This document shows positions 1-50,908 of a DNA stretch of 50,908 nucleotides, one piece after another (the stretch's first letter is position 1; each line of letters begins with the position of its first letter). The stretch comes from a virus: the IMG/VR virus record IMGVR_UViG_3300045988_169817. The stretch is one strand, 5' to 3'. Made by a program: the position numbers and the translations under genes. The notes beneath the pieces were generated by a model. The model ran no database searches. It saw nothing but the letters and a program-made list of their open reading frames with translations, and was not told the origin of the DNA.

Positions 1-99
1 CCATGGCGAGCAGAAACAAATCGATAAAATGCGAGAGCTTTACGATTTGTTGCCGGTTAAACCTGAGTGGCTTACAAGAGAACAAATTGATGGATACGC
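1..99. repeat. Terminal direct repeat, identical to 50810-50908. This is an assembly overlap of a circular or terminally redundant genome.
   Basis: Read directly. Both copies run from ccatggcgagcagaaac to ttgatggatacgc. Confidence 0.95.
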
Positions 100-121
100 G
101 GCAAGAATGGGCATAAAATAA
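1..121 (+). CDS. 3' part of the wrap-around ORF that starts at 50700 (76 aa in total). Hypothetical small protein.
   Basis: The frame continues across the 99-bp overlap. Position 1 is the third base of an Ala codon, and the TAA stop is at 119-121. Confidence 0.6.
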   Translation, partial: HGEQKQIDKMRELYDLLPVKPEWLTREQIDGYAARMGIK

Positions 122-179
122 CCAACATTATTTAACGAAAAAAGTTCTTAAAGCAGTAACCAGATTAAAATAAAAGTAG

Positions 180-187
180 TATATTTG
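180..187 (+). promoter_or_regulatory. Bacteroides-type -7 promoter box TATATTTG
   Basis: Matches TAnnTTTG. It lies 61 nt upstream of the ATGGTAACA start at 241, the same spacing as at 738/800 and 49447/49508. Confidence 0.55.
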
Positions 188-240
188 CATATACTTAAAA
201 AGATATGGCGATAGCCAAAACAACTAAAATTTACAGCAAT

Positions 241-402
241 ATGGTAACAATGAAATTTTCAGCAACCAAGTCAGAAACATTGTTTTTGACACCGACAATT
301 GCAGTTGAACAAGACAACTCAGAAACAGCAATCCGATTTGCTCTTTGGCACGGCGTGTTCAGTGTAGAGGTAAGCAAGAGTTACAAAAACCGTAAAAGCT
401 AA
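241..402 (+). CDS. Hypothetical small protein (53 aa). The ORF track starts it at 205.
   Basis: The start was moved to 241 because the leader plus start aaaatttacagcaNtATGGTAACA is duplicated at 785-808, in front of the 800 ORF. Confidence 0.4.
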   Translation: MVTMKFSATKSETLFLTPTIAVEQDNSETAIRFALWHGVFSVEVSKSYKNRKS

Positions 403-407
403 ATAAC

Positions 408-674
408 ATGGCAAGAAACGAAATATTTGTAGCGGCTTATAGGCTTGAAGTTGAGGCCACTCGAGAGAATTTGGACAGTATGGAGAACTTCATGGAAGCA
501 ATTTCGGATTGCGCTATCGTGTCCAACGATGAGGGCCATGTGGCTATCATAGTAGCTTCTTCAGAAGCCTTGAGCCTATCAAGATTGGCTAATATGGCAC
601 TCAGATTTTTTGCCAAGGAGGGATATAGTATAAGTACTCTCGGACTCTTAGGGCCGTTCAAGAAACTCAATTGA
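408..674 (+). CDS. Hypothetical protein (88 aa)
   Basis: ATG-initiated ORF packed tightly behind the previous ORF. No motif recognised. Confidence 0.45.
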   Translation: MARNEIFVAAYRLEVEATRENLDSMENFMEAISDCAIVSNDEGHVAIIVASSEALSLSRLANMALRFFAKEGYSISTLGLLGPFKKLN

Positions 675-737
675 TATTTTTTAACATAAAACTTGGAAAA
701 AGTTCCCAAAGCGGCTCAATGATTCAAAAAAACATAG

Positions 738-745
738 TATATTTG
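738..745 (+). promoter_or_regulatory. Bacteroides-type -7 promoter box TATATTTG
   Basis: TAnnTTTG match 62 nt upstream of the ATG at 800. Confidence 0.55.
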
Positions 746-799
746 CAATATCAAAATTAAACAATAACATTTTAATAACAATTCAAAATTTACAGCATT

Positions 800-1924
800 A
801 TGGTAACAAAGAAATTTTTGCAGATGACAACGAAGAAGCTGAATGCTCTTTTGGCAACAGCAAGTGATGAAGACAAGAAGGCTATCGAAGCCGTACTTGC
901 AGCTCGTGAACAGGCTCAGGCCCCCGCTGCTCCTGCAGCTCCTGAGGCAACCGCAGAAGAGACTCCTGCAAATGAAGAAGAAACTCAGCTCAGTCTTGAG
1001 GAAGAAGCAGCTATTAAGGCAGCTGAAGAGAATGGCGGGCTCAACCCGCTTTACAATGGCAGCAAGGCAACTCAGGAGAAAAAGCCAAAGATGACCGATG
1101 AGGACCGCCATGCGCTGGCCGAAGAGCTGAAGAAGAACGTTAACCATCGTTGTCAGGCAGTTCCTTTTAACACCGTAGAATGGGTTGACGGCTATATCGC
1201 CGGAGTGATTGAAGAGAAGCGCAGCAATAGGGTACTCTATGCAATCAAGACAGACGACGGACGCCGCATTGTTAAGGTACACGACAGCAATCTCGTTCGC
1301 ATTCTGGATGAAGTTGTTGAGCCGGAGAAGAAAGTCCGTGCTCGCAAAGCAAAAGACCCGGTAGACAAAATTGAATGGACGCCGGAAGTAATTGCCGAAG
1401 AGGTTAACGAAGTTATCGGCAATGTAGGTAAAACGGTAGAATTTGAGAAATATCGCACTACAGACGAAAACGGCGAAGAACACATTGAAATGGTAGTTGG
1501 CCGTATCGTGACAATCGTGCCTGACAAACGAGCTCAGCGCTTGCTCTACCGCATTTCAGTTCCGACCCCTATCGAAGGCAATCCGCTCGCAACGAAGACT
1601 ATGCACAAGGTTGTAAAAGCTGAGGGCCTTAAGATTGCCGAAGAGTTCGACGAAGAAGGTGCGCAGCTCAATGCCAAGTATCTGGAGCGCCGTGAGGCAT
1701 CAGCAATCCGCAATCCGCTTACTGCTCAGGACCGCGTAATTCGCTGCGAGGAGAATGTGAAGAGGGCAGAAGAGAAGCTGCAGAAAGCTCAGGAAGAGTT
1801 GGAAGCCAAAAAGAAGCAGCTCTTGGATGCAAAGAAGGAGCTGGATTTATATCCCGGTCAGGTAAATGAAGCTCCTGCCGGAGCTCCTGTTGAGATTACA
1901 GCCGGAGAGGAGTCACTTGCATAA
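800..1924 (+). CDS. Hypothetical protein (374 aa). It has an Ala/Pro/Glu-rich N-terminus, two internally repeated beta-rich modules and a C-terminal coiled coil.
   Basis: Long ORF with its own promoter and two terminators. The segments VEWVDGYIAGVIEEKRSNRVLYAIK and MVVGRIVTIVPDKRAQRLLYRISV look paralogous. It is visibly more GC-rich than the surrounding sequence. Confidence 0.7.
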   Translation: MVTKKFLQMTTKKLNALLATASDEDKKAIEAVLAAREQAQAPAAPAAPEATAEETPANEEETQLSLEEEAAIKAAEENGGLNPLYNGSKATQEKKPKMTDEDRHALAEELKKNVNHRCQAVPFNTVEWVDGYIAGVIEEKRSNRVLYAIKTDDGRRIVKVHDSNLVRILDEVVEPEKKVRARKAKDPVDKIEWTPEVIAEEVNEVIGNVGKTVEFEKYRTTDENGEEHIEMVVGRIVTIVPDKRAQRLLYRISVPTPIEGNPLATKTMHKVVKAEGLKIAEEFDEEGAQLNAKYLERREASAIRNPLTAQDRVIRCEENVKRAEEKLQKAQEELEAKKKQLLDAKKELDLYPGQVNEAPAGAPVEITAGEESLA

Positions 1925-1955
1925 CACAGCCGCCTGACACCGTTTCTCCCATGGG

Positions 1956-1985
1956 GCCGTCTCGAAAGAGGCGGCTCTTTTTTTT
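1956..1985 (+). terminator. Rho-independent terminator
   Basis: GCCGTCTC-gaaa-GAGGCGGC stem-loop (one G:U pair) followed by a run of T. Confidence 0.75.
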
Positions 1986-2013
1986 GCTGCATATCTAAAT
2001 ATGCAGCTATTTT
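1986..2013 (+). terminator. Second hairpin, possibly a tandem terminator
   Basis: GCTGCATAT-ctaa-ATATGCAGC followed by tattttt. Confidence 0.5.
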
Positions 2014-2521
2014 TGTATTATTGTGATTTATGTTAAAATATGTAAACTCATAGAAACATGCTTCTTTCGCGTTCTAAAACACTTTTAGGCTTTAGGTGTA
2101 CTATAACATGGGTTAACTCAATTTGACGCGATAGAGGTCAAAAGAAGTATATCTATCAATGTATTTTTATAAAGCCTATAATATGAATTGAGGCATGGAC
2201 TTTCCTGAGCTTTAAGCTACCAAGCAGTTATATAAATAGCTGTTAAATTTATGGCTAAAAAGTTGACTCATTTTCTTGGCTTCTAGGACACTTTTATTTG
2301 AGAATAATAGTAGACTAAATCTATAAAAAGAAATGAGGAGAGAATGAACGAGAATAATGAAATTTCATATATTTTCGAGGCATTTAGAGCTCTATATTTT
2401 TATTTTGAAGCCGCAATAAACCAATGAAAAATTTTTATGTTAAAGCCTGTGAAACAGTGATTTATATCAAGATTATTTTGTACTTTAGCTTATAAAAGAA
2501 CAAAAGTAAAACTGTTAAAAA

Positions 2522-2752
2522 ATGTTACACACTAGAACACATAAAAGCCGCATGGCCATTATGATTAAACAGCTTATGCCTGAATGTACAAGCTGTGTAG
2601 CCCGCGTGCACAGTGGACTATGCAGCAATTGTCCACATTGGACTCCGAGTGTGGTACAGGAGTTAACAGAGGAAATGGCCGAGAGAATATCCGCCACAAT
2701 TGGACAGGAGAATATCACAAGGCCCAACGAGAGAAATGTTGAACAAAAATAA
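2522..2752 (+). CDS. Hypothetical small Cys-rich protein, possibly a zinc ribbon
   Basis: CTSC...CSNC pair of CxxC motifs. The start is uncertain, with internal Met codons available. Confidence 0.4.
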   Translation: MLHTRTHKSRMAIMIKQLMPECTSCVARVHSGLCSNCPHWTPSVVQELTEEMAERISATIGQENITRPNERNVEQK

Positions 2753-2763
2753 ATAATTGCAAT

Positions 2764-2961
2764 ATGGAAATAAATGAACAAGAGAATACCCAAGAGGTAC
2801 AGCAAGAGAATTTGCTTGATGGCTCTCAGTCAGTTCAAGCAATGCAAGAAGGAAATGAACTGCCAATTGCTGTTCAATTAGTTCAGCCTCAAGCTGCTTT
2901 AGATGAAATAGCGGAGCTTGAGAAGAAATATCGTGAAACTATAGAACGGGAGAATAAATGA
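2764..2961 (+). CDS. Hypothetical acidic and Gln-rich small protein (65 aa)
   Basis: ATG-initiated ORF that overlaps the next ORF start by 4 nt (ATGA). Confidence 0.4.
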   Translation: MEINEQENTQEVQQENLLDGSQSVQAMQEGNELPIAVQLVQPQAALDEIAELEKKYRETIERENK

Positions 2962-3434
2962 GCAATTTTGTTTTAGATTACAGCAAAAAGCAGACTTTGC
3001 AAATATCAAATGATGCTTTTTGCTTTTTGTATTATGGCGAAGAGCCATTAGACGAAGACAATTTGGAAGAAGCCAATGAGGTATCTGAAATGTTTTCCAA
3101 TAATTTTTATATAGAAGATGATTGGAAAGCAGTTGATGACTCAGACCTTATAGAATGTACTTTTGTTCCGTATGTTGAAGACCAAGCCGATTATGATGAA
3201 TATGAGGACCTTACTAAATATATTCAGCAGCAAATAAAATGGCTTGATGCAAACCATATTAGAGTGTGGTGGTTTAATAACCAAACTGGAGCGAGAGAAT
3301 TACGCGGTGATTTTAAGGTTTATACCAATAAATATGGCCTTAAGTGTTTTCATACAGGCAATCAAGATGAGGATTTTGCGACAGGAAAAACGAGCTTGTA
3401 TTTTTTGAAGAATTTCAAGAAGCGCATAGCTTAA
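2958..3434 (+). CDS. Hypothetical, strongly acidic protein (158 aa)
   Basis: Translationally coupled ORF with many D/E runs (DEDNLEEANE, DDSD, EDQADYDEYED). Confidence 0.55.
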   Translation: MSNFVLDYSKKQTLQISNDAFCFLYYGEEPLDEDNLEEANEVSEMFSNNFYIEDDWKAVDDSDLIECTFVPYVEDQADYDEYEDLTKYIQQQIKWLDANHIRVWWFNNQTGARELRGDFKVYTNKYGLKCFHTGNQDEDFATGKTSLYFLKNFKKRIA

Positions 3435-7602: not shown

Positions 7603-7689
7603 TATTCTCGCGCGCTCTAGAGCACGCCTATCATTCCATTATTATTCAATCATTCATGTACTTAAAGCGCGATATTGCGCGCGAGAATA
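7603..7689. promoter_or_regulatory. GC-rich inverted repeat carrying two GCGAGAAT boxes, with an internal GCTCTAGAGC palindrome
   Basis: tATTCTCGCGCGC (7603-7615) and GCGCGCGAGAATa (7677-7689) are reverse complements. They lie in the spacer between the dUTPase stop and the 7586 start. Confidence 0.55.
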
Positions 7690-9441: not shown

Positions 9442-10068
9442 TTATTGTTTAATAAAATTTATGTTGTCAGATGAATAATACACAGTATTTGTGCTTTTTA
9501 CTCTATAAATAGCATTGTTAGATAATTTGCATTCTATAATACAGTGTGAAGTACAATAGGCATTGTCACATGCTTCTACTGTGGCATTACCGCGTGCTTT
9601 CACTGTGGCATTATCGCATGCTTCTACTGTGGCATTACCCCATGCTTCTACTGTGACATTGTCCCATGCTTTCACTGTGGCATTGTCCCATGCTTTCACT
9701 GTGGCATTACCGCGTGCTTCTACTGTGGCATTGTCGCATGCTTTCACTGTGGCATTACCGCATGCTTTCACTGTGGCATTACCGCGTGCTTCTACTGTGG
9801 CATTGTCGCACAAAAGAAACCCAGACCGAACCGAAATGTTGATAAATATATCATTTTGAGCAAAATCCTCACGATATTGCATTAGCAAGTTAGAAGTAAT
9901 AACTTTGTTGTTAAAGTACCAATTAAAATTGTCTTTAATAACGCTGCATAATTCTTGAAGTGTTTCAGATTTATACGCTCGGCTGTATTGCTCAGTACAT
10001 GCTTTAGCTGCTTTAGCACGATTAAGAATTTCAGCTTTTATATCTTCAAAATCTGTTTTCTGTGTCAT
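9442..10068 (-). CDS. Repeat protein with about 10 tandem 8-residue units [GD]NATV[EK]A[CRW], a predicted beta-solenoid
   Basis: The repeats are visible in the translation and as a 24-nt DNA periodicity. The ORF-track start at 10092 is TTG, and the first ATG is at 10068. Confidence 0.65.
   Translation of the reverse strand: MTQKTDFEDIKAEILNRAKAAKACTEQYSRAYKSETLQELCSVIKDNFNWYFNNKVITSNLLMQYREDFAQNDIFINISVRSGFLLCDNATVEARGNATVKACGNATVKACDNATVEARGNATVKAWDNATVKAWDNVTVEAWGNATVEACDNATVKARGNATVEACDNAYCTSHCIIECKLSNNAIYRVKSTNTVYYSSDNINFIKQ
9561..9810. repeat. Tandem 24-nt coding repeat, about 10 copies
   Basis: The unit gcttctactgtggcattaccgcgt recurs with few substitutions. Confidence 0.9.
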
Positions 10069-10351
10069 ACCATTTTGAGTTATTAAGTTCAAGGTAATTA
10101 TTTAATGCGCCCATATAAGCAACTGCATCAAGCAAGTTATCTTCTTTGTGGCTATATGCCTCACGTGATAGCTTAAGAGCAATCATTGCTCTATACATTC
10201 CAGCAGTTGTTATTTGCTGGTCTTTAGGCGACATCAAGTTATAAAGAGCTGCTGCTCTTTCCATTGATGCCTGGAATGGCCCATATTGACGCTCTTTTTC
10301 CTCTGAGCGTTCATTTACAATCTTGTTTGCTTGTTCTAAGATGTTAGCCAT
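10046..10351 (-). CDS. Hypothetical small helical protein (101 aa)
   Basis: ATG-initiated ORF. The ERxxxYG motif near the N-terminus is reminiscent of small phage nucleotide-associated helical proteins. This is recollection only. Confidence 0.5.
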   Translation of the reverse strand: MANILEQANKIVNERSEEKERQYGPFQASMERAAALYNLMSPKDQQITTAGMYRAMIALKLSREAYSHKEDNLLDAVAYMGALNNYLELNNSKWYDTENRF

Positions 10352-10867: not shown

Positions 10868-10875
10868 CAAATATA
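10868..10875 (-). promoter_or_regulatory. Bacteroides-type -7 box TATATTTG
   Basis: Reverse complement of caaatata, extended as TATATTTGCATAT like the other copies. Confidence 0.5.
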
Positions 10876-10949
10876 CTAATTTTCTCCGAGAATAGAAAAT
10901 TTTTCATTATAAAATGCACTCACTTAACACTTCTTAACTTGGCCAGATT

Positions 10950-18373: not shown

Positions 18374-18399
18374 TACATTTCACTTATGTATTATAATAG

Positions 18400-18480
18400 G
18401 AGTATAGGCGGGACTCGAACCCGCATAACAGGCACACAAACCAATGGCGCTCTGCGGTTTTACCATTAAACTACTATACT
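18400..18480 (-). tRNA. tRNA-like gene (81 nt) with canonical acceptor, D and T arms but a non-canonical, over-long anticodon region. Identity is undetermined.
   Basis: On the minus strand: AGTATAG/CTATACT acceptor, GTTT-AATGGTA-AAAC D arm, GCGGG-TTCGAGT-CCCGC T arm. There are 32 nt between the D and T arms instead of about 23, and no 5-bp/7-nt anticodon arm could be folded by hand. Confidence 0.6.
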
Positions 18481-21225: not shown

Positions 21226-21247
21226 ATTTTGGTGAATTTTATTATCT

Positions 21248-21268
21248 TATTTTCGATATGCAAATATA
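21248..21268 (-). promoter_or_regulatory. Extended promoter element TATATTTGCATATCGAAAATA
   Basis: It contains the TAnnTTTG -7 box. Near-identical 21-mers occur at 49314-49334 and 49447-49467. Confidence 0.6.
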
Positions 21269-21363
21269 CAAACTATTCTCGAAAGAAAAAAAATTTTCCA
21301 TTATTTTTTGAGAATTTATTTGTTAAAAATAATTAAACGGCAATTTTAGTGCGGCTTTGAAAT

Positions 21364-21510
21364 TGCTGTAAACAAAGAAACAATAGAAACAACACCCCTA
21401 TATATTTCAAACTTAATTTCTTAATTTCCGATTAACATTAATGTTAATAAGAAATATCAGCTTTTAATACGAAAAGATTTAATGAAATTATTGTTTCTTT
21501 GTTTACAGCA
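21364..21510. promoter_or_regulatory. 21-bp perfect inverted repeat (21364-21384 and 21490-21510) flanking an 18-bp palindrome (21431-21448), with AGAAACAA iterons
   Basis: tgctgtaaacaaagaaacaat and attgtttctttgtttacagca are reverse complements. attaacattaatgttaat is a palindrome. Confidence 0.7.
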
Positions 21511-21576
21511 TATATAAGTAATTGATTTTGAGCACTTTAGGCATAAACAATGACTTGTTTATATTGTTTCTGTTGT

Positions 21577-21969
21577 TTACCGCTTTATGAAGTATTTTGC
21601 ACACAGCCATATAATTACTAAGGCTATGGCGGTTATCAGGTATTCACCAATATTAATTTTTATCTTTTGCCATTTAGTAAGCTGAGCTTCTACAGGGTAT
21701 GCAACTTGAATTGTATCAACTTTTTCTCGCCAGAGAGTATCATGCTTTTCTATGTATTTATACAAGTATTTATATTTACTGAGATACACGGTATCGCCTT
21801 TGTGCTCTACATATATTGAATCTCTATGATATATGCTATCAATTTTGGTCTGAGATAAGTAAGTAGTATCTCTTTTCGTTGTTTCCACTGGCACATATTG
21901 AATTGACTTACAGCTATATAATATAGTGGCTAAAAATATAAGTGTAATTATTCTCGCTAATTCTCGCAT
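21577..21969 (-). CDS. Lipoprotein with a C-terminal transmembrane helix, a unimolecular-spanin-like lysis protein
   Basis: N-terminal signal plus lipobox-like LYSC, a C-terminal TM segment ITAIALVIIWLCAKYF, and a position adjacent to the endolysin and holin. Confidence 0.5.
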   Translation of the reverse strand: MRELARIITLIFLATILYSCKSIQYVPVETTKRDTTYLSQTKIDSIYHRDSIYVEHKGDTVYLSKYKYLYKYIEKHDTLWREKVDTIQVAYPVEAQLTKWQKIKINIGEYLITAIALVIIWLCAKYFIKR

Positions 21970-22013
21970 AATCTTTGAGTTTTATTTGTTATTATTCATA
22001 TTTAATATAAAAA

Positions 22014-22048
22014 CCATTCTCGCACATAAGAAATTATTGCGAGAATGG
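22014..22048. terminator. Hairpin built from two inverted GCGAGAAT boxes. It is terminator-like on the minus strand.
   Basis: CCATTCTCGCA-13 nt-TGCGAGAATGG. On the minus strand the stem is followed by TTTTTAT. Confidence 0.55.

Positions 22049-25426: not shown

Positions 25427-25454
<28 letters not shown>
24222..25454 (-). CDS. Tail-associated SGNH/GDSL-family hydrolase, a putative polysaccharide esterase
   Basis: Block I ILCFGNSFTQDS and a C-terminal DTGH (DxxH) motif. It is the last gene of the tail-fibre block. Confidence 0.6.
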
Positions 25455-27028
<1,574 letters not shown>

Positions 27029-43438: not shown

Positions 43439-43530
43439 ATATTCTCGCATTATGTCCATTCAAGGCTTATGATTTAATCATTTATATATAATTAGAAGCC
43501 TAGAAATTGCGAGAATAATGCGAGAATATG
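43439..43530. promoter_or_regulatory. 13-bp inverted repeat carrying GCGAGAAT boxes (three boxes in total)
   Basis: atattctcgcatt (43439-43451) and aatgcgagaatat (43518-43530) are reverse complements. An extra box lies at 43509-43516, 11 bp from the next. Confidence 0.6.
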
Positions 43531-43539
43531 AATTTTAAC

Positions 43540-46263
43540 TCAATTTCTCAATGATATCTTCTTCCTTCCAGCTTTTCTAAGCCTCATTTCTACTACTCCA
43601 GTTAATGCATCTGGTGCATCATCATGAGCAGCCCTTCGCTTATTATCTTTACGATAAGTTGTAATAGCATTATAGAATTCACGCCATTTTTTATCCCAAT
43701 TTTCTGGAAACGCTACATCTGAGTTAACAAGAGCTGAATTTGAAAAAATACGAGCAGCTTTATTTTTTGTCTGTGTAAAAGTATTTATGGCTGTTTTGAA
43801 ATTATGCAAAGTAGCTCTTGTAATACGCTTTACATTTCTAGCAAACTGCCTACCACCATTATTGGACTCTATCAGACATTCTGTTATACTATTTTCTGTG
43901 AGCATTTTAGCCAACATTACTTCAGTTTTTTCCATGGGCAGTTGTGTGTATAGCACATCAATTATATATAGCATTTCTGGAGTATTTATAAAGCAAATTG
44001 CACATAAATAATCAGAGCCAGTATCAGCTGTATCAACGTAACACCATCTTTGATTAGCTTTAGAGCCTGATGGCAATTCTATATTTTGATATGTCCTAAA
44101 CTCGTGATACATAAGGCCCTCAGTAGGAATTGGATTTTGCATATATTGGGTCTCAAATACTACCGGGTTAATCTCTCGTAGTTTATATAGCTCCTCAAGA
44201 TTGTGCTTCATTGGCCAAAGAGCATGTTCTTCTCCTGTCTCAGGGTCTGTTTGTATAACTGGAAGTGATAAAACAGTCCATGTATCTGGCTCTATCTCTT
44301 GCAAATAGCCACAGAGGTCATGCTCATGTAATCTTTGCATTATAATAATGATAGGCGTTCTACGCGAGTTAACACGGTTACGTATTGTATTTTCGAAGCG
44401 TTGGTTTATGCGCTCTCGTATAAGGTCGGATGCTGCATCATCGGCTTTCAGGGGGTCATCGATTACAATTGCGCCTTGAAATATATTGGTTTTAGCATCT
44501 ATCATTTTAAGCATTTCATTCGTGTGGTCATCGAAAACAAATATATCATTGCCTCCATCCATTTTATCTATTTCTTCATCTACCGCTCCAGCACCAAAGC
44601 CTGTGACCTGACCTTGTGTTGACACTGCATAGAGTTCTCCTCCTGCTTTAGTTTTCCATCTCTTAGCCGAACCTTTCTCGGATGCAAGAGCTGAATTAGG
44701 AAAGAGTGTTTTATATAATTCTTCACTCATTATATTGCGTACAGTATCTGAATTGTCATTCACAAGTATATCTGAATACGACAAATGCAGAAATCTACTC
44801 CGCGGGTTCAAGGCGAAGGCCCATGAGATAAACGACTTAATAACTAATTCTGTATTGTGTGATACGAGCCCATTGGCTATAAAATTTTTATCGCCAGATA
44901 CTTCAATATGAACTAATTCATGCTTTCCTACTTCTTCTATACTAACAATTTCATCAGGATAGAAATCTTCAGCCCAATATCTCGTAAGGTTATCAGGAAA
45001 AATTTCCACTAATTCTCTAAATGTATCTTCTGACATATTCCTATTTGGCCCAACTGATTTATACCCTAAATCAAAGTGTATCATTTTGTAAAGGCCTTCA
45101 TTCTTTATTATAGAATACGGGTATGTGCATGTACGTTCTATTTTAGAAGGCTGTAAAATGTATTCTTTTGCTTTATCTGCTTTTCCATAAAAATCCAAAT
45201 GCGGATATAATTTTTGAGAATACCTTCTTGATATTGCAACATTCCATATACCAGCTTTTTCATTTTCATAAAATCCTAAAGTTGATGGGATTTTCATAGT
45301 AGATAACAGATATTGGATATCCTCAGCAAGTCCTTTGTTTGCTAGGCCTATAGACAACTGGCCATTCTTTTTTATAGTACCATCTGTCGCTATCACTATT
45401 CCTAAAAACACATATTTTTGTCGCATAGAAGTACTAAATATTCCTAATGGGATTCTTTTAGTATAAGAGTCATTTCCAACTAATCTATGCTTTATTAAAA
45501 TGTTATCTATTACGCCTTTAGTTCCGCCTAATATGGTATATTGACAATCTGCGGTACAAGAATAATGCTTGACCTCACCTCCGAGTTCATTAACAGCCTT
45601 TATAACAGCATTTACCGCTAATTTATCTATGTTAGTAAATCCTAATTTACCAGATTTTGTACAACATCCGTCAAACAGCACCATTGATATTAGTATAACC
45701 TCCGCGTCTGATAATGTTTCGGCGCCGTCCAACTCTTTTTTTAGTGCAAATATCCTATCTCCAATTTTAAGCCTATTAGATTTTACATACCCGAACGGTG
45801 TCCTCCAAGGATGGTCAATACTGCATACAACTGACCGACCTGACCTCATAGTAATTTCATAGCAGTCTTTATATGCCGGCTCAGTAGCAATAACGCTATT
45901 AACAACTGCTCTACCATCTTTGAATGATAGCACTTTATCTCCTGGCAGTATATCAGCTATTTTTTTTCGCTCACCTGTAGCAAGCGTAATAAGGGTATCT
46001 TTACTAACGCATTTCCCGTATCTGGGAGCGATATTGATAATCAATCTGGTAATTTTACCATCTACAACATCTTGTAACACTTCGAACATTTTCTTATGGT
46101 GCTCTGCTACTATGAATGAGCGTTTATATTGGCATTTAAACATTAGTTTAGTATACTTTTCAAATGACGTAAGAGCCTCAAGGCGTAACATTTCTACAGG
46201 ATTTACAGTTCCGGGCTTTGTGGCGTCTAATGCTGTTTCTTGCATTTCTTTAAGTGACTTCAT
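43540..46263 (-). CDS. terL: Terminase large subunit interrupted by an intein (907 aa precursor, 521 aa after splicing)
   Basis: The Walker A motif APRYGK|TELV is reconstituted by removing residues 85-470. The C-terminal nuclease half has a typical length. Confidence 0.8.
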   Translation of the reverse strand: MKSLKEMQETALDATKPGTVNPVEMLRLEALTSFEKYTKLMFKCQYKRSFIVAEHHKKMFEVLQDVVDGKITRLIINIAPRYGKCVSKDTLITLATGERKKIADILPGDKVLSFKDGRAVVNSVIATEPAYKDCYEITMRSGRSVVCSIDHPWRTPFGYVKSNRLKIGDRIFALKKELDGAETLSDAEVILISMVLFDGCCTKSGKLGFTNIDKLAVNAVIKAVNELGGEVKHYSCTADCQYTILGGTKGVIDNILIKHRLVGNDSYTKRIPLGIFSTSMRQKYVFLGIVIATDGTIKKNGQLSIGLANKGLAEDIQYLLSTMKIPSTLGFYENEKAGIWNVAISRRYSQKLYPHLDFYGKADKAKEYILQPSKIERTCTYPYSIIKNEGLYKMIHFDLGYKSVGPNRNMSEDTFRELVEIFPDNLTRYWAEDFYPDEIVSIEEVGKHELVHIEVSGDKNFIANGLVSHNTELVIKSFISWAFALNPRSRFLHLSYSDILVNDNSDTVRNIMSEELYKTLFPNSALASEKGSAKRWKTKAGGELYAVSTQGQVTGFGAGAVDEEIDKMDGGNDIFVFDDHTNEMLKMIDAKTNIFQGAIVIDDPLKADDAASDLIRERINQRFENTIRNRVNSRRTPIIIIMQRLHEHDLCGYLQEIEPDTWTVLSLPVIQTDPETGEEHALWPMKHNLEELYKLREINPVVFETQYMQNPIPTEGLMYHEFRTYQNIELPSGSKANQRWCYVDTADTGSDYLCAICFINTPEMLYIIDVLYTQLPMEKTEVMLAKMLTENSITECLIESNNGGRQFARNVKRITRATLHNFKTAINTFTQTKNKAARIFSNSALVNSDVAFPENWDKKWREFYNAITTYRKDNKRRAAHDDAPDALTGVVEMRLRKAGRKKISLRN
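44854..46011 (-). mobile_element. Intein (386 aa) with a LAGLIDADG homing-endonuclease domain
   Basis: N-terminal CVSKDTLI, block B CSIDHPW, two LAGLIDADG-like motifs (LISMVLFDGC and FLGIVIATDGT), and a C-terminal VSHN followed by Thr. Confidence 0.8.
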
Positions 46264-46273
46264 TGCTATATTT

Positions 46274-47062
46274 TTACTTTATTAAGTTTTCACGTATAAT
46301 CAGATATGCTTCACGACTTACAGGCACATTAGGAATAATGCCTGTTTGGAGTTGTTGCTGCTCAGGTAGATTAAGCTGCATTTGACCTTTTCCAAACACA
46401 CGGTCCCAAAGCTTCTCAATTGTTTCTATATTGCCAAGTTTTGTATCTTCTTGCAAGCGCTTTATAACTGTTTTGATAACGATTGGTATCTTTTTATTGT
46501 TATACAGAGCCGCAAGTTGTGCCTCATTGCACGTTAACAAACAAGCCAATAAATTAGCCGTGTCCTGCTTTGTAAGTTGGACACTTAAATTGATATTAAG
46601 GCTAGTAAGAAGCTTTGTTATTTCAGGCCTTGATGCTCCTTGTAACTGAAGTGCTGAGCGTATAGCTGATGAATATGAACCTCTGCCCGAGTCATGGCGC
46701 TCTGCTAACTCAGTTGCTTTAAGTGGCTCTACAGTCTGAGCCTCAAGTGCCTCAATAGCCTCAACTCGTTTTTGCTGCTCTGCAATACGTTTGGCTTGAA
46801 ACTCAGTTTGGCCATCTGGTATTTCTTCCAAGCCAAGTTCTTCTGCTAACGATCGGCGTTTTTCTTGTTTAGCTTGAAGGTTTTTAAGCTTCTGCTTTTC
46901 AAGATACTTAATACGAGCCAATTCCTTTGCATCGTATTTTGATTTAATGCGCGTGGCCTCTTGTTCTACGAGTTTGGATGTGTCTGGATTAGACATTCCA
47001 GGAACTATTGGCCTGTTTGGCAATATATCTGCTAATTTCTGTGCTATTTTATCTGTTTTCAT
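46274..47062 (-). CDS. Putative terminase small subunit (262 aa)
   Basis: Position immediately upstream of terL only. Confidence 0.35.
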   Translation of the reverse strand: MKTDKIAQKLADILPNRPIVPGMSNPDTSKLVEQEATRIKSKYDAKELARIKYLEKQKLKNLQAKQEKRRSLAEELGLEEIPDGQTEFQAKRIAEQQKRVEAIEALEAQTVEPLKATELAERHDSGRGSYSSAIRSALQLQGASRPEITKLLTSLNINLSVQLTKQDTANLLACLLTCNEAQLAALYNNKKIPIVIKTVIKRLQEDTKLGNIETIEKLWDRVFGKGQMQLNLPEQQQLQTGIIPNVPVSREAYLIIRENLIK

Positions 47063-47864
47063 ATTGGCTATTATATTTTTGTTGTTTATTTGATATGGTT
47101 TTACTTTTTTCTTCTAATGCCATATCTTTCTTTATTTGGTTTTGTAATCGCCTATACTCTGTTGCTTTTCTAAGGTCTGGCTCTATAGTTATTATATCAT
47201 CTGCATTATTAAATCTCCATACAGAACCATAGGCTATTCTCCGTTGGCCATTGCAACACATGTATATGGCGCTTGGGTTGACTTTTGTCGGTGTTGAATT
47301 TGCGTATTCTCTTATAGAATCCCATCTTTTATAAAATTTATAAGTATTTTCTGCTATCTCAGTATACTGATATACGGCTCTATGTGGATAACTACGTATA
47401 GTATCTGTTCCTGATTTACGTATTGTATCTGGTATTCCCCATTTTGCTGCATATCCTGGTATGACGGCTTTTTCTGCTGCACATTTATTTAAGCTATTTA
47501 TTATGTTGTGGCCGTAGGGAGCATAAGCTATATATTCATCTATCAATTCATACATTCTTAGGTATACGCCCATCAAGTCTAGGTTCATAGGAATTTCTTC
47601 TGTGGACACCGTTATATATTTGCTTTCAGTTATGGCTTTTGCCAAGTCAGGATTGTTTTTACTTGGCCAAGCTGCATTATGAAATGCATCATATATAAGC
47701 CTCTCTATTTTGTTTTTAACAGTAAAAGTTCTTCTTTCTCCTGTCCAGCCTATGTATACTTTATTATCATACTCAAACTCAAGTATGAAAAATGCACTTG
47801 TAGACTGTAAATTGGCGTTTTCTTGTAAATCTACCAAATACTTGTATTTACCTATGCGTATCAT
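47049..47864 (-). CDS. GIY-YIG homing-endonuclease-like protein with C-terminal DNA-binding repeats
   Basis: FILEFEYDNKVYIGWT, EEIP...YGHNI resembles I-TevI (EEIP...NGYNI). The C-terminal pattern AIYMCCNGQRRIAYGSVWRF is NUMOD-like. 47891 is TTG, and the first ATG is at 47864. Confidence 0.55.
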   Translation of the reverse strand: MIRIGKYKYLVDLQENANLQSTSAFFILEFEYDNKVYIGWTGERRTFTVKNKIERLIYDAFHNAAWPSKNNPDLAKAITESKYITVSTEEIPMNLDLMGVYLRMYELIDEYIAYAPYGHNIINSLNKCAAEKAVIPGYAAKWGIPDTIRKSGTDTIRSYPHRAVYQYTEIAENTYKFYKRWDSIREYANSTPTKVNPSAIYMCCNGQRRIAYGSVWRFNNADDIITIEPDLRKATEYRRLQNQIKKDMALEEKSKTISNKQQKYNSQYENR

Positions 47865-47888
47865 AAATATAGTTTTTTTATTACTTTG

Positions 47889-47896
47889 CAAATATA
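47889..47896 (-). promoter_or_regulatory. Bacteroides-type -7 box TATATTTG
   Basis: It lies 25 nt upstream of the ATG at 47864, and a GCGAGAAT box (47920-47927) sits about 25 nt further upstream. Confidence 0.55.
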
Positions 47897-48383
47897 CTAA
47901 TAAAAATTGATAGGCGAAAATTCTCGCAAAATAAAAATTACACAGAAATGAGAAATTAACATTTTTTTATACTAGTGAATTATTAACCTTTTAATATGAT
48001 ATTTCACAGGTATTTAGGCATATATCTTAGTTAGTGAATAGAAAATGAGGCTTTGGTTTCTTGTGTTTCTACCTCACAAAATAAAGCTAATTGAAAATCA
48101 ATATTTTATCAAATTTAATTAGTGAATGGAAATTGAGTGGCGCAGAAACAATCATCTCTAACTCTTCTACGAAGTCTTATACTGTGATATGTGAATAGAT
48201 AAGCCTATCTATATCACAATTCACTATCTCAAATCTATTTTATCTCTTTTATATATTTATTGTTTATGTTGTTTATCGATATCTAATTTATTGAAAATCA
48301 ATCATTTATTGAGAAACTTCACTCTGATTTCGCATGTTTATTTTGTTTCTTTGAAAATTATTTCTGAGCATCTATTCTTTATT

Positions 48384-48780
48384 GCGAGAATGGGATTTTG
48401 TCAATTCCTTATTAAGTCTAGGGGCCTAGATTGATATTTGCGAGAATGTATGCGAGAATGAGAATTTATGAGCCTCTGGGCCTTGCTCATACTCATATAT
48501 GATTTGAATCCCAATTTGCGAGAATGATTTGAACCCCCAATTTGCGAGAATGGTTTGAACCCCAATTTGCGAGAATGATTTGAAGCCAAAAAATTTTTCT
48601 GCCTATGGACATGGCTCTATATACTATATATGATTTGAATCCCAATTTGCGAGAATGAGAATTTATGAGCCTCTGGGCCTTGCTCATACTTATATATGAT
48701 TTGAATCCCAATTTGCGAGAATGATTTGAAGCCAAAAAATTTTTCTGCCTATGGACATGGCTCTATATACTATATATAAG
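48384..48780. repeat. Array of nine same-orientation TGCGAGAAT boxes embedded in two larger duplications
   Basis: Boxes at 48384, 48440, 48452, 48518, 48544, 48569, 48649 and 48715. The block at 48452-48531 recurs at 48649-48728 with one mismatch. The block at 48569-48632 recurs at 48715-48778. Confidence 0.9.
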
Positions 48781-48881
48781 GGGGCACCCAGGCACTGCGG
48801 CAGGGGCCTAATTTCCACACAGGCTAAACAAATTAAATATAAAAATCTATTTCGTTAAAAAGCATTAAGCCTGACAGCCTC

Positions 48882-48970
48882 ATTCGTTAATTATAGCTTG
48901 ATTCATTAATTATGGTTTAATTCATTAATTATGGTTTAATTTGTTAATTATTGGTTTGATTCGTTAAGAA
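48882..48970. repeat. Tandem repeat of about 19 nt (about 4.5 copies, attcattaattatggttta)
   Basis: Units at 48882, 48901, 48920, 48939 and 48959. They are flanked by an imperfect direct repeat tcgttaaNaagcattaagNct. Confidence 0.85.
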
Positions 48971-49313
48971 GCATTAAGGCTATGAGCCTGTTAACAACTC
49001 TCTGGTAAAACAACCTTCAAGTTCCAAGCCATAACCAGGCTCACAGGCTCTCCTCTAACAAGGTTTAACGAAGCTTTGACATTTCCTAACCGAAAATATT
49101 TTCAGGTTCCGATTGTTTTATTAGCTGACAGTTATAAAATCATTATTTTCAGCTTATTAACGAAACAACCAGGAAATCTAATACAATTTAACTTGTAAGA
49201 TTTTTATAGGTTATTTATTTTACAGGTTATATAGCCAACAATTTTTAATATTCATATCCAGGTTTCTTAACACTTTTTTAATGCATAAATTTTATAGCCG
49301 GTAAAATTATTAT

Positions 49314-49334
49314 TATATTAGCATATCGAAAATA
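49314..49334 (+). promoter_or_regulatory. Promoter-like 21-mer TATATTAGCATATCGAAAATA (one mismatch in the -7 box)
   Basis: Near-identical to 49447-49467 and to the reverse complement of 21248-21268. Confidence 0.4.
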
Positions 49335-49374
49335 AGCCGGATATATATATAATAATTTAATGGTTATTAACCAA

Positions 49375-49414
49375 ATATCCAATACTTATTAACGAATATC
49401 CAATACTTATTAAC
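49375..49414. repeat. Direct repeat atatccaatacttattaac, two copies with 21-bp period
   Basis: 49375-49393 and 49396-49414 are identical. Confidence 0.85.
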
Positions 49415-49446
49415 CAAATAAATTTTTCCGGTTAAAATAAAATTGG

Positions 49447-49467
49447 TATATTTGTATATCGAAAATA
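49447..49467 (+). promoter_or_regulatory. Promoter TATATTTGTATATCGAAAATA for the plus-strand gene block
   Basis: TAnnTTTG box 61 nt upstream of the ATG at 49508. Confidence 0.6.
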
Positions 49468-49507
49468 AAACGAGAATAATATGGAATAATTAAAAAATAT
49501 AGACAGT

Positions 49508-49864
49508 ATGAAAATTAGCAGAAACTATCGTTTCGTCCTGACAGTTCTGGACAACGAGAAAATTAACGCGGGAGAAATCCGTATTGACAGCAGTGCTGTA
49601 ACCGGCGAGAGAATGTTTGTCAGCGAATGCCATTATTATGCCGAAAAAAATATTTTGGAATGCCTGAAAGAGGCCGACAAAAGAAATGACCTGAGCGGTT
49701 ATTACGGCCATACGTACTGTATTTATAAGGAAAACAAGTCGAAAAAGGAAATAACCGAACGGGAGGAGGACGGCAAGAAGATTGTCGAAACTAGAGAAAT
49801 ACCGGGAGAGGCAATGTTGCTCGAAATAATAACCGTGGACGAAAATGGCGTAAATATCCGCTGA
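49508..49864 (+). CDS. Hypothetical protein (118 aa)
   Basis: ATG-initiated ORF, the first gene of the plus-strand block. Confidence 0.55.
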   Translation: MKISRNYRFVLTVLDNEKINAGEIRIDSSAVTGERMFVSECHYYAEKNILECLKEADKRNDLSGYYGHTYCIYKENKSKKEITEREEDGKKIVETREIPGEAMLLEIITVDENGVNIR

Positions 49865-49874
49865 TGCGGATATT
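49851..49874 (+). other. 10-bp hairpin spanning the stop codon of the 49508 ORF
   Basis: AAATATCCGC-tgat-GCGGATATTT. Confidence 0.6.
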
Positions 49875-49876
49875 TA

Positions 49877-49923
49877 GCCCAGGCCGGGAAGGCTGTACAG
49901 GAGTTCGACTCTCCTGCTGGGCA
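49877..49923 (+). ncRNA. tRNA-like acceptor/T-arm minihelix. It could be a tRNA fragment, an att-like remnant or a tRNA mimic.
   Basis: GCCCAG...CTGGGC acceptor-like stem (6 bp) enclosing AGGAG-TTCGACT-CTCCT, which fits the T-arm consensus. There is no D or anticodon arm. Confidence 0.4.
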
Positions 49924-49964
49924 CAATTGGCAATATTGCCGAGAGGATTAAAATAAACTATAAT

Positions 49965-50168
49965 ATGGATAAATTTAATTTAGTAGTACGTGCTGCAAGA
50001 GAATTGGCGCGTGCCGTACAAGAGAATTATTATGGCCTGTCAGACCTAGATAATATTAATTACAGCGAGGTATGTGAATGGTGTAACTTTCCTGATTTAC
50101 AAGACGGAGGTATATATGAACAGGCTATTGATGCGGCTGCAAAAATTATTATAGAGGTTATTAAATAA
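49965..50168 (+). CDS. Hypothetical small protein (67 aa)
   Basis: ATG-initiated ORF. Confidence 0.45.
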   Translation: MDKFNLVVRAARELARAVQENYYGLSDLDNINYSEVCEWCNFPDLQDGGIYEQAIDAAAKIIIEVIK

Positions 50169-50178
50169 CAGGAGAATT

Positions 50179-50460
50179 ATGGCACAATTACAGCAATTTT
50201 TGTTCGGATTATCGTTCGGACAGGCCAGGAGAATACGCGGATATATGCTGAAACGGCGTGTATTGCGGCTCAATGAAAGGCCTAGAGCAGGCCATAAATG
50301 GCTATATGCCGAACGAGGATATATTAGAAGGACTGTCAGAAGTATTGGCAGGAGAGTCCTGCACGGGAGAATGGCCGAGAGATATGCAGCTAGTAATATG
50401 TATGGAGGCATGGCAGTAAAAAGTGTTGGACTAAAACAAGAGGACAGCAATGGAAAATAA
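50179..50460 (+). CDS. Hypothetical Arg-rich basic protein (93 aa)
   Basis: ATG preceded by aggag, one of the few SD-like sites in the window. Confidence 0.45.
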   Translation: MAQLQQFLFGLSFGQARRIRGYMLKRRVLRLNERPRAGHKWLYAERGYIRRTVRSIGRRVLHGRMAERYAASNMYGGMAVKSVGLKQEDSNGK

Positions 50461-50698
50461 CAAATCGCAGTTCAAGAGGACAGGAGTTTTGCATGGCGGA
50501 ACCGAGTGCGTTGAGGTACAAATAAGTCACTCAGGCGATGCGGCAAGGTATGTGAGCACAATCATGTTCACAGTAAGGGACCCAGAGGTCACGAGAGGCC
50601 GTTGGCAAGAGAAACGCTACAGCAAGAGAAACGGCCATGCGTATATTGTGAAGTACGGCAAGAGGCTATATTTGCACAAATTTCTAAGAATATACTAA
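50450..50698 (+). CDS. Hypothetical protein (82 aa)
   Basis: ATG-initiated ORF overlapping the previous one by 11 nt. Confidence 0.45.
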   Translation: MENNKSQFKRTGVLHGGTECVEVQISHSGDAARYVSTIMFTVRDPEVTRGRWQEKRYSKRNGHAYIVKYGKRLYLHKFLRIY

Positions 50699-50699
50699 C

Positions 50700-50908
50700 A
50701 TGGCAGCAAGAGACTATAAATTTGAGTACATGCTACTCAACCGGCTTCAATGCGATTGCAATTACTATCTTGGCCACGGCGGCCGAAATGCTCAGCATTG
50801 TCTTTGGGCCCATGGCGAGCAGAAACAAATCGATAAAATGCGAGAGCTTTACGATTTGTTGCCGGTTAAACCTGAGTGGCTTACAAGAGAACAAATTGAT
50901 GGATACGC
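50700..50908 (+). CDS. 5' part of the wrap-around ORF (it continues at 100-121). 76-aa protein with the motif YMLLNRLQCDCNYYLGHGGRN...LW...PEWLTREQIDGY.
   Basis: The ATG lies 2 nt after the previous stop codon, and the reading frame is continuous through the terminal overlap. Confidence 0.6.
   Translation, partial: MAARDYKFEYMLLNRLQCDCNYYLGHGGRNAQHCLWAHGEQKQIDKMRELYDLLPVKPEWLTREQIDGY
50810..50908. repeat. Second copy of the 99-bp terminal direct repeat
   Basis: Identical to 1-99 by eye. Confidence 0.95.

Follow-up and report, generated by a model that had tools for sequence, protein, structure and literature searches.

The gene-free interval at 47865-49507 of IMG/VR virus record IMGVR_UViG_3300045988_169817 is most likely a conserved patchwork of promoters and short repeated sites, which acts as DNA and not as protein or structured RNA. 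We will term this interval, which is about 1.6 kb long, the gap, and the whole stretch of DNA that was analyzed (50,908 nucleotides) the window. The gap lies between the first late open reading frame (ORF) and the first early ORF (ATG at 49508) of a Bacteroides-type phage lineage that is very common in human-gut data. We propose, with a probability of roughly 0.45, that the gap is a cis-acting control region made up of clusters of protein-binding sites, that a DNA-binding protein of the phage recognizes the sequence TGCGAGAAT, and that the array of TGCGAGAAT copies in the gap is the main platform of a middle/late regulator. Regions of this kind are familiar; here, one is mapped for an abundant and unstudied lineage of gut phages. 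Almost nothing is known of gene regulation, origins, or packaging signals in the siphophages of Bacteroides, and the new map (promoters that share a leader, a 9-bp site found across the genome, exchangeable core modules, and elements with deep conservation) provides concrete targets for functional tests.

Promoters and repeats between the early and late genes

The first late ORF was listed as 47049-47891 with a TTG start. Its likely start is the ATG at 47864, because a promoter box (47896-47889) falls within the TTG extension, and this sets the left bound of the gap. An ORF scan of the gap found only ORFs of 34-80 amino acids (aa), and the two longest (62 and 80 aa, both on the minus strand) are translations of the repeat array. 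All eight small ORFs of the gap were compared to PHROG, with no family match. Furthermore, no reading frame is kept among the relatives because the length of the array changes in steps of 25-26 nt and 146 nt, and the corresponding gap of the cultured phage BF486P2 is unannotated. These results speak against a protein-coding gene, whether intact or disrupted. They agree with the earlier note on this DNA, which saw no credible ORF here and took the region to separate two divergent transcription blocks; the gene layout does place the gap between the plus-strand early block and the minus-strand late block. That note also raised the possibility that homologous phages carry genes at this place, but none of the relatives that we looked at do.

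Promoters of the Bacteroidetes sigma-A type, with an intergenic and correctly oriented TAnnTTTG box, stand at both sides of the gap (47896 on the minus strand and 49447 on the plus strand). (TAnnTTTG is the Bacteroidetes promoter consensus; promoters were predicted by scanning both strands for this −7 box.) The extended form of the box, TAGTATATTTGC, is found only at a handful of intergenic sites: at 180, 738, and 49447 on the plus strand and at 47896, 43379, and 10875 on the minus strand, to which GTATATTTGC at 21268 (minus strand) can be added. Two copies of a promoter-like 21-mer had been noticed ahead of the early genes; with their boxes at 49314 and 49447, these are promoters of Bacteroidetes type with a conserved leader (P1 and P2 in Table 1). 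The box of P1 is canonical in the relatives (TATATTTA or TATATTTG). The box and leader of P2 recur at 21268-21247 on the minus strand, where the pair would drive the middle operon, and a similar pair is found at 10875. A scan for sigma-70-type promoters and for terminators, which is ill-suited to Bacteroidetes, gave counts that were not above chance and no terminator-like site.

Between these promoters, we found the repeats that the earlier note had described, at or close to the positions it gave: the TGCGAGAAT array with two nested duplications, a tandem repeat of about 19 nt with its bracketing repeats, and a direct repeat with a period of 21 bp (Table 1). The claim of at least four unrelated repeat families needs to be qualified. 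There are indeed further families (a palindrome, TTAGTGAATrGAAA, the TTGTTTA runs, and a G+C-rich island), but not all of the families are unrelated: TTCGTTAA/TTAACGAA is common to the 19-mer, its brackets, the inverted copies at 49065 and 49157, and the junction of the 21-mer. Six of the 11 copies of TTCGTTAA in the genome are within 48851-49396. Some motifs are also common to the gap and to the regulatory gap at 21.2-21.6 kb, namely TTGTTTA (9 copies there and 4 in the gap), the promoter leader, and CTTATTAAC, which is also at 49153 and, on the minus strand, at 21443, upstream of the middle promoter. We could not draw a conserved hairpin in the G+C-rich island. In a search for prophage or host copies, a 19-nt array core had 3 matches in 185,579 species genomes, and these showed no further similarity to the window.

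DNA scans and protein-guided scans of IMG/VR yielded more than 100 related contigs, and the modules are in the same order in all of them: a late promoter with motif copies, an A+T-rich part with the palindrome, the TGCGAGAAT array, the G+C-rich island, the core, and 1-3 early promoter modules. All 31 full-length relatives have the TGCGAGAAT array, in 1-8 exact copies; the window is at the maximum. In the left-hand part, 48229-48350 is the sole piece that is kept in all relatives. The sequence GGGGCCTAA of the G+C-rich island is kept in 26 of the 31 relatives (with at most one mismatch) and in BF486P2. The central ~400 bp, or core, exists in three exchangeable forms, all of which have tandem repeats of their own: type A contains TTCGTTAA boxes (19 of 31), type B contains 47-nt and 32-nt units (9 of 31), and type C is a diverged cousin of type A (3 of 31). 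In BF486P2, a gap of 1.66 kb has the same place and architecture. The palindrome and GGGGCCTAA are common to both gaps, and the local repeats of the BF486P2 gap are peculiar to it.

Because the repeats are so changeable, we considered whether most of the gap could be a neutral spacer in which slippage and unequal recombination make and lose repeats and in which only the promoters matter. The copy number of every repeat family varies among near-identical relatives (the 19-mer, for instance, has 1-4.5 copies), one 146-bp duplication, nested in the array of the window, is missing from a genome that is 98.5% identical, and whole modules have been swapped. Nevertheless, a neutral spacer is highly improbable. 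The modules follow one order throughout the more than 100 contigs, and they do so even in BF486P2, with structural proteins that are no more than 42-65% identical; copies of the motif are conserved while the surrounding DNA turns over; and, in comparisons of the window with five relatives, the alignment of the core (76-87%, gaps included) is somewhat better than that of the adjacent early gene (72-77%).

Two other observations concern rearrangements of the gap. First, a 5.4-kb fecal scaffold (MT838291.1, positions 44-325) has a type A core and early genes joined to an XRE-type helix-turn-helix (HTH) gene at the position of the TGCGAGAAT array, which shows a mosaic boundary at about position 48848 of the window. 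Second, inverted arms of 17 nt at 47920 and 48375 flank 438 bp, as in an inverton (an invertible promoter). We rejected this candidate: the segment is not inverted in any of 27 relatives, and there was no recombinase among the proteins that we scanned.

A short site across the genome and its proposed role

The TGCGAGAAT sites have the features of a regulon-type set of operators: they are over-represented, biased towards intergenic DNA, associated with promoters, and conserved independently of their flanks. In the whole window, there are 15 copies of TGCGAGAAT while 0.49 are expected, and none of 100 shuffled sequences reached 15. The invariant core of the site, CGAGAAT, has 28 copies in the genome (6.1 expected; at most 14 in 200 shuffles). 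Twenty of these 28 copies are intergenic, while intergenic DNA makes up 11% of the genome. If up to one mismatch to TGCGAGAAT is allowed, then there are 30 sites, 18 of them intergenic. Outside of the gap, CGAGAAT-type sites are found at 7.6, 10.9, 21.3, 22.0, 35.4, and 43.5 kb.

Sites are located at or shortly upstream of all four strong minus-strand promoters (Table 1). For the late promoter, there are 1-3 copies at 25-110 nt upstream, in either orientation, in all of the relatives that we examined. (The plus-strand promoters at 180 and 738 have no copy of the motif upstream, and we found no second conserved element at a fixed distance from the motif.) At the promoter at 21268, CGAGAAT is invariant in the relatives in which this promoter was found, and its flanks vary. 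At the junction of the genes for TerL and the head protein, three 9-mers are kept in the relatives in which the site was found, while the 50-60 nt between them have been swapped for unrelated sequence, of at least four kinds, with loss of the extended stem. This persistence of the 9-mers in a shifting context suggests that the 9-mer is recognized in DNA, and not that a particular hairpin is under selection.

On the coding strand of the early block (49508-50809 and 1-3434), a shorter form of the motif, GAGAAT, is enriched by about four-fold, with 17 copies in 5.8 kb as compared to about 1-2 per 2.5 kb elsewhere. Many of these read GGAGAAT or AGAGAAT and precede an ATG by a few bases, as at 50179 and 2958. 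They may be a Shine-Dalgarno-like signal, which would be unusual for Bacteroidetes, or weak copies of CGAGAAT. GAGAAT-type motifs, including CGAGAAT at 2349, are also present at 1925-2520, which is a third stretch of about 600 bp without a clear gene and which follows a strong terminator-like hairpin (~1945-1990). In addition, near-copies of the motif (TGCGATAAT and TGCGACAAT) occur in a tandem repeat at 9569-9810, within the ORF at 9442-10092; this repeat has a period of 24 nt, a super-period of 72 nt, and about 10 copies.

An alternative explanation is that the array or the core is transcribed into a non-coding RNA and functions at the RNA level. For example, it could pair with the AUUCUCGCA/UGCGAGAAU arms of the intergenic hairpins as an antisense or sponge RNA, or it could be a tandem-repeat mimic of an antitoxin, like the pseudo-ToxI of phage PhiTE; the inverted pairs could be terminators or processing sites. 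Tandem units of variable copy number, such as those in the gap, are typical of type III antitoxin RNAs. Also, the core folds more stably than shuffled sequences on both strands (z = −4.0 and −3.2), as do the inverted pairs of motifs at three intergenic gene junctions (z = −4.0 for 7604/7680, z = −9.2 for 22016/22038, and z = −6.7 for 43441/43508), one of which is followed by a run of U. However, the array folds no better than shuffled sequences (z = +0.6 and +1.9). In a consensus fold of the core from 10 relatives, 0 of the 50 predicted pairs were compensatory (the covariation term was +0.29). Rfam gave no match at the gathering score (the best E-value was 0.39), and a search for tRNAs found only the element at 18.4 kb. 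Neither strand has a TAnnTTTG promoter that could transcribe the array or the core: on the plus strand there is no box between 47615 and 49447, and on the minus strand the only boxes in the interior of the gap, at 48237 and 48117, face away from both. Several copies of the motif are upstream of promoters and therefore cannot be in the mRNA, and, as mentioned above, relatives have lost the extended stem at the TerL-head junction. The lack of covariation, of an Rfam family, and of a promoter or terminator that would delimit it speaks against a structured non-coding RNA, and we consider any function at the RNA level to be very unlikely. The inverted pairs do resemble the PeSL (promoter-early stem-loop) cassettes of T4-type phages, in which near-identical stems are found by promoters in several intergenic gaps. 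Unlike PeSL, only the 9-mer is shared here and not a whole cassette, and no stems can form in the largest cluster, a direct array.

The hairpin at 22014-22048 varies in its own way. Almost all of the 80 relatives share its outer stem (CCATTCTCG/CGAGAATGG), and its 13-nt loop is found in both orientations, as AATTTCTTAT in 43 relatives and as the reverse complement in 34. This looks like the recurrent flip-flop of a small palindrome loop that is seen in chloroplast hairpins.

If the gap is a control region, then we propose that one sequence-specific DNA-binding protein, which is encoded by the phage and is probably an early product, recognizes the 8-9-bp site and would use it to turn on or off the transcription of middle and late genes. 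Where two sites are spaced by 10-12 bp, binding may be cooperative, along the same face of the double helix. The array, with its 8 copies and its place halfway between the early and the late promoters, would be a high-capacity platform (a reservoir, an enhancer, or a nucleation site) whose size could easily be changed by slippage and duplication. The right half of the gap has features that are found only there, namely the TTCGTTAA boxes, the 21-nt repeat, and DNA with 19-24% G+C at the tandem early promoters; it would most likely be an early operator zone, and it may double as a start site for replication.

Several observations weigh against this proposal. No DNA-binding protein could be assigned; the early proteins had no family matches. 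The distance between site and promoter is inconsistent, from overlap with the spacer to over 60 nt upstream, so no single mode of activation or repression follows. The array is unusually distant for operators, at 490-830 bp from the late and about 590-930 bp from the early promoters. The hairpins are very stable (z = −4 to −9) and one of them has a terminator-like T-run; part of the signal may act in RNA. A counterpart of the genome-wide motif was rejected for BF486P2, as the motifs in its gap are purely local, which implies that genome-wide use of the motif is lineage-specific and is not needed for the basic function of the gap. Finally, the layout of the gap, its statistics, and its conservation are observed; the binding protein, the direction in which it would regulate, and any part in replication or packaging are inferred from them.

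As a set, the sites are reminiscent of the stoperators of mycobacteriophage L5, the heptad arrays of the omega protein of pSM19035, the KorB operators of RK2, and the Alt-activator repeats of TP901-1 and Tuc2009 (which are upstream of the late promoter). As in these systems, a short asymmetric intergenic site occurs singly or in direct or inverted pairs, at variable distances from promoters and with one dense array, and is conserved while its flanks drift. There are also differences. The L5 stoperators are co-oriented, while the orientation of our sites relative to transcription is mixed. The omega heptads and the Alt boxes are adjacent to promoters, while the array in the gap is not. And, in contrast to all four systems, the cognate protein is putative here, and the phage did not show any lysogeny or partition genes.

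A more specific version of the proposal is that the TGCGAGAAT array is a reservoir whose capacity is tuned by copy number, either as a titration sink or as a nucleation platform for a global regulator of the phage, and that it would time the switch from early to late expression. (A variant is that the array would be a cis-acting replication element for the VapE-type primase-helicase, similar to the crr of phage P4.) This is speculative and we doubt that it is correct. If it were true, slippage between 1 and 8 or more copies would act like a dial, with which evolution could quickly adjust the infection program of one of the most widespread lineages of Bacteroides-type phages in the human gut.

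Table 1. Positions of features in the window (kb or nt, numbered from its first letter; promoters and binding sites are predicted)
Feature	Position	Strand	Details
A+T-rich left part	48027-48352		TTAGTGAATrGAAA at 48031 and 48119; palindrome ATTGAAAATCAAT at 48090 and 48290; TTGTTTA runs at 48260-48350
TGCGAGAAT array	48383-48777	plus	8 exact direct copies (48383-48722); core of unit AATTTGCGAGAATGATTTG; tandem part with period of 25-26 nt
Nested duplications in TGCGAGAAT array	48451/48648 and 48550/48696		86 nt (98% identical) and 82 nt (98%), respectively
G+C-rich island GGGGGCACCCAGGCACTGCGGCAGGGGCCTAAT	48780-48812		33 bp; sole G+C-rich spot of the gap
Core module, type A	48848-49232		Bracket boxes, 19-nt tandem, inverted TTAACGAA copies at 49065 and 49157
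Bracket boxes TTCGTTAAnAAGCATTAAG	48851 and 48960		
19-nt tandem	48882-48967		4.5 copies
Early promoter module P1	49297-49340 (repeat module from 49309)	plus	−7-like box TATATTAG at 49314-49321, degenerate; leader ATATCGAAAATAA at 49323-49335
21-nt direct repeat (AATATCCAATACTTATTAACS)	49364-49420	plus	2.6 copies, between the two early promoters
Early promoter module P2	49427-49477 (repeat module from 49442)	plus	−7 box TATATTTG at 49447-49454; leader ATATCGAAAATAA at 49456-49468; CGAGAAT at 49471-49477
Late promoter, −7 box TATATTTG within TAGTATATTTGC	47889-47896	minus	Serves first late ORF, TerS-position gene, and intein-containing TerL
TGCGAGAAT copy at late promoter	47920-47928	minus	23 nt upstream of late −7 box (about −44 to −36)
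One inverted and two direct TGCGAGAAT copies	43441-43527		TerL/major head protein junction; 61 nt upstream of promoter 43379
Hairpin CCATTCTCGCA-N13-TGCGAGAATGG, then T-run (minus)	21950-22048		Amidase/spanin-like junction; two direct copies at start of spanin-like gene
Middle promoter	21261-21283	minus	TTCGAGAAT 6 nt upstream of box TATATTTG
Reversed motif copy TCCGAGAAT	10885-10893		9 nt upstream of promoter box 10875
Inverted pair ATTCTCGCG ... CGCGAGAAT	7604-7688		Intergenic gap of replication/nucleotide block
Late block	47.9 to 21.6 kb	minus	Small ORF, 262-aa TerS-position protein, TerL with LAGLIDADG intein, head protein, portal, further structural genes, holin, amidase, spanin-like gene
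Middle block	21.2 to 3.5 kb	minus	HTH-like protein, DUF2800 exonuclease, gp2.5-like single-stranded DNA-binding protein (SSB), family-A polymerase, VapE-like primase-helicase, SNF2 helicase, nucleotide-metabolism genes
Early block	49.5 kb across the junction to 3.4 kb	plus	Small genes, function unknown

Replication and packaging

The earlier note suggested that the gap could be an origin of replication, a packaging (pac) region, a regulatory switch, or a source of non-coding RNAs. The divergent promoters and the genome-wide site support the switch, and non-coding RNA was not upheld. An origin is compatible with the data, but no more than that, and a pac region is compatible by position only. 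Neither of these roles is mutually exclusive with regulation.

An origin could work in two ways. The copies of TGCGAGAAT, the TTCGTTAA boxes, or both could be iterons that are bound by the VapE-like primase-helicase, similar to phage P4, in which octamer iterons are bound by the alpha protein both at ori and at crr, a distant element that consists of two long direct repeats. Or, transcripts that run from the tandem early promoters into the DNA with 19-24% G+C could prime replication, as at the primary origin of T7 or at the ori of lactococcal phage c2. In support of an origin, the direct repeats adjoin A+T-rich stretches (48200-48350 and 49150-49500, both with 19-24% G+C), the two tandem promoters are also in A+T-rich DNA, and the short sites are within nested long duplications, as in the crr of P4. 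The phage encodes a primase-helicase, a family-A polymerase, a gp2.5-like SSB, and an exonuclease, and we saw no separate initiator (the domain of the primase-helicase is VapE-like/DUF5906). The gap is also at the point where transcription diverges and at the minimum of the cumulative GC skew (47-48 kb), but this minimum is not informative because it coincides with the switch in coding strand. As for spacing, the repeats recur every 19, 21, or 25-26 nt, and the last of these does not amount to full turns of the helix.

Other observations make an origin rather unlikely. There is no cluster of DnaA boxes in the gap. The number of iterons is normally stable, yet there are 1-8 copies among near-identical phages. 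Coupling of iterons to an initiator was looked for in the types of core, as the TGCGAGAAT array occurs together with the primase-helicase in every close relative, and we found none, whether to the primase-helicase or to the adjacent 118-aa early protein: in 19 contigs, no column of the primase-helicase alignment separates type A from types B and C, and the early protein is up to 99% identical across core types A and B. The precise placement of CGAGAAT in promoter spacers fits better with regulation. And, the gap is far from the replication genes, while another repeat-rich gap, at 21226-21576, is directly upstream of them. This second gap contains a perfect inverted repeat of 20 nt (CTGTAAACAAAGAAACAATA at ~21505 and ~21365), nine copies of TTGTTTA/C, and one copy of CTTATTAAC, and it is an alternative candidate for the origin. 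Overall, the gap is similar to the ori of phage c2 and to the ori and crr of P4 in that it is a gene-free point of divergence between early and late genes, with direct and inverted repeats, A+T-rich DNA, and an internal early promoter; as in P4, the short sites are within longer direct duplications, and a primase-helicase takes the place of a separate initiator. In contrast to those systems, the number of sites is unstable, sites are also found in promoter spacers, and the core types are uncoupled from the primase-helicase; the origin here is a candidate.

If the gap were instead a pac region, then the small subunit of the terminase would bind the TGCGAGAAT array, and the first headful cut would be made nearby, for example in the G+C-rich island. 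The array and the conserved G+C-rich island are 0.5-0.9 kb upstream of the late operon, which starts with a small ORF, the 262-aa protein at the position of TerS, and TerL. The extein of TerL is about 30% identical to the TerL of Tuc2009 and of T1-like phages, which are headful packagers, and the closure of the genome by a 99-nt overlap is compatible with a permuted genome. Also, exchange affects the core on the far side of the array but leaves the array joined to the late side. But the sites are not confined to the packaging region: as described above, they are found at six other places, including the spacers of promoters for replication genes and the space between lysis genes, where a terminase would have no obvious role. 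The pac sites of headful phages are usually inside or at terS, and the 262-aa protein was not confirmed as TerS. We therefore consider a pac region to be improbable. Similar arrangements are known from the cos of lambda (cosN beside the R sites of cosB) and from the pac of P1 and SPP1 (repeated boxes and hexamers), where a cluster of short sites is beside a conserved G+C-rich element and upstream of the terminase operon. However, the relatives of this TerL point to headful packaging, in contrast to lambda cos, and, unlike in any of these systems, we found no shared terminus and the motif is also far from the packaging genes.

The ends of contigs do not support a pac region either. Of 80 related contigs, 43 end in the gap, many of them being about 50 kb and near-complete. 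These ends are inside different tandem repeats, with no common nucleotide, and we rejected physical termini as their cause; they cluster in the gap because the repeats break assemblies. (An end that seemed to be shared by two loci reflects storage boundaries and not the ends of contigs.) In public virome catalogs, the "genome ends" of this lineage in the gap are probably assembly artifacts, and the copy numbers of its repeats from short reads are probably misreported.

The phage and other features of its genome

The window is a closed assembly, in which bases 1-99 recur at the end, so that the phage genome is about 50.8 kb, with promoters of Bacteroidetes type. Its nearest cultured relatives are the Bacteroides fragilis phages BF486P2 and BF503P4, to which a 446-aa protein of the structural block is 65% identical and the TerS-position protein is 42% identical. 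We found no paper on BF486P2-type phages, and the paper on phiB124-14 is silent on origins and repeats.

The 262-aa TerS-position protein has more than 800 homologs, and a single cluster at 90% identity contains 3,937 sequences; however, no name for this protein came from Pfam, PHROGs, the sequences of the Protein Data Bank (PDB), or a search of 5.8 billion proteins. The first late ORF (47049-47864) is present in all of the relatives that we examined, as strongly divergent alleles of 204-280 aa that have FxxEFEYDxKxYxG in common. It had no match in Pfam, PHROGs, or PDB, and the GIY-YIG label that the earlier note gave it is plausible but unverified.

Several other features of the genome are unusual. 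The gene for TerL (43540-46263, minus strand) is interrupted by an intein that spans about 390 aa (residues ~80-470) and has a LAGLIDADG domain; the TerL gene of BF486P2 is far shorter (1566 nt). Between the SSB and polymerase genes, there is a tRNA-like gene (18399-18480, minus strand; 45.7 bits against the tRNA model of Rfam) with 22 nt in place of the 11-nt anticodon arm of the model. ARAGORN reports it as tRNA-??? with a four-base anticodon (ccat), so it could bear an intron, decode a quadruplet, or be degenerate. Finally, a perfect microsatellite, (ACT)x19.7 at 25910-25968, is within a 533-aa ORF (25427-27028) and would give a run of about 20 serines on the coding strand.

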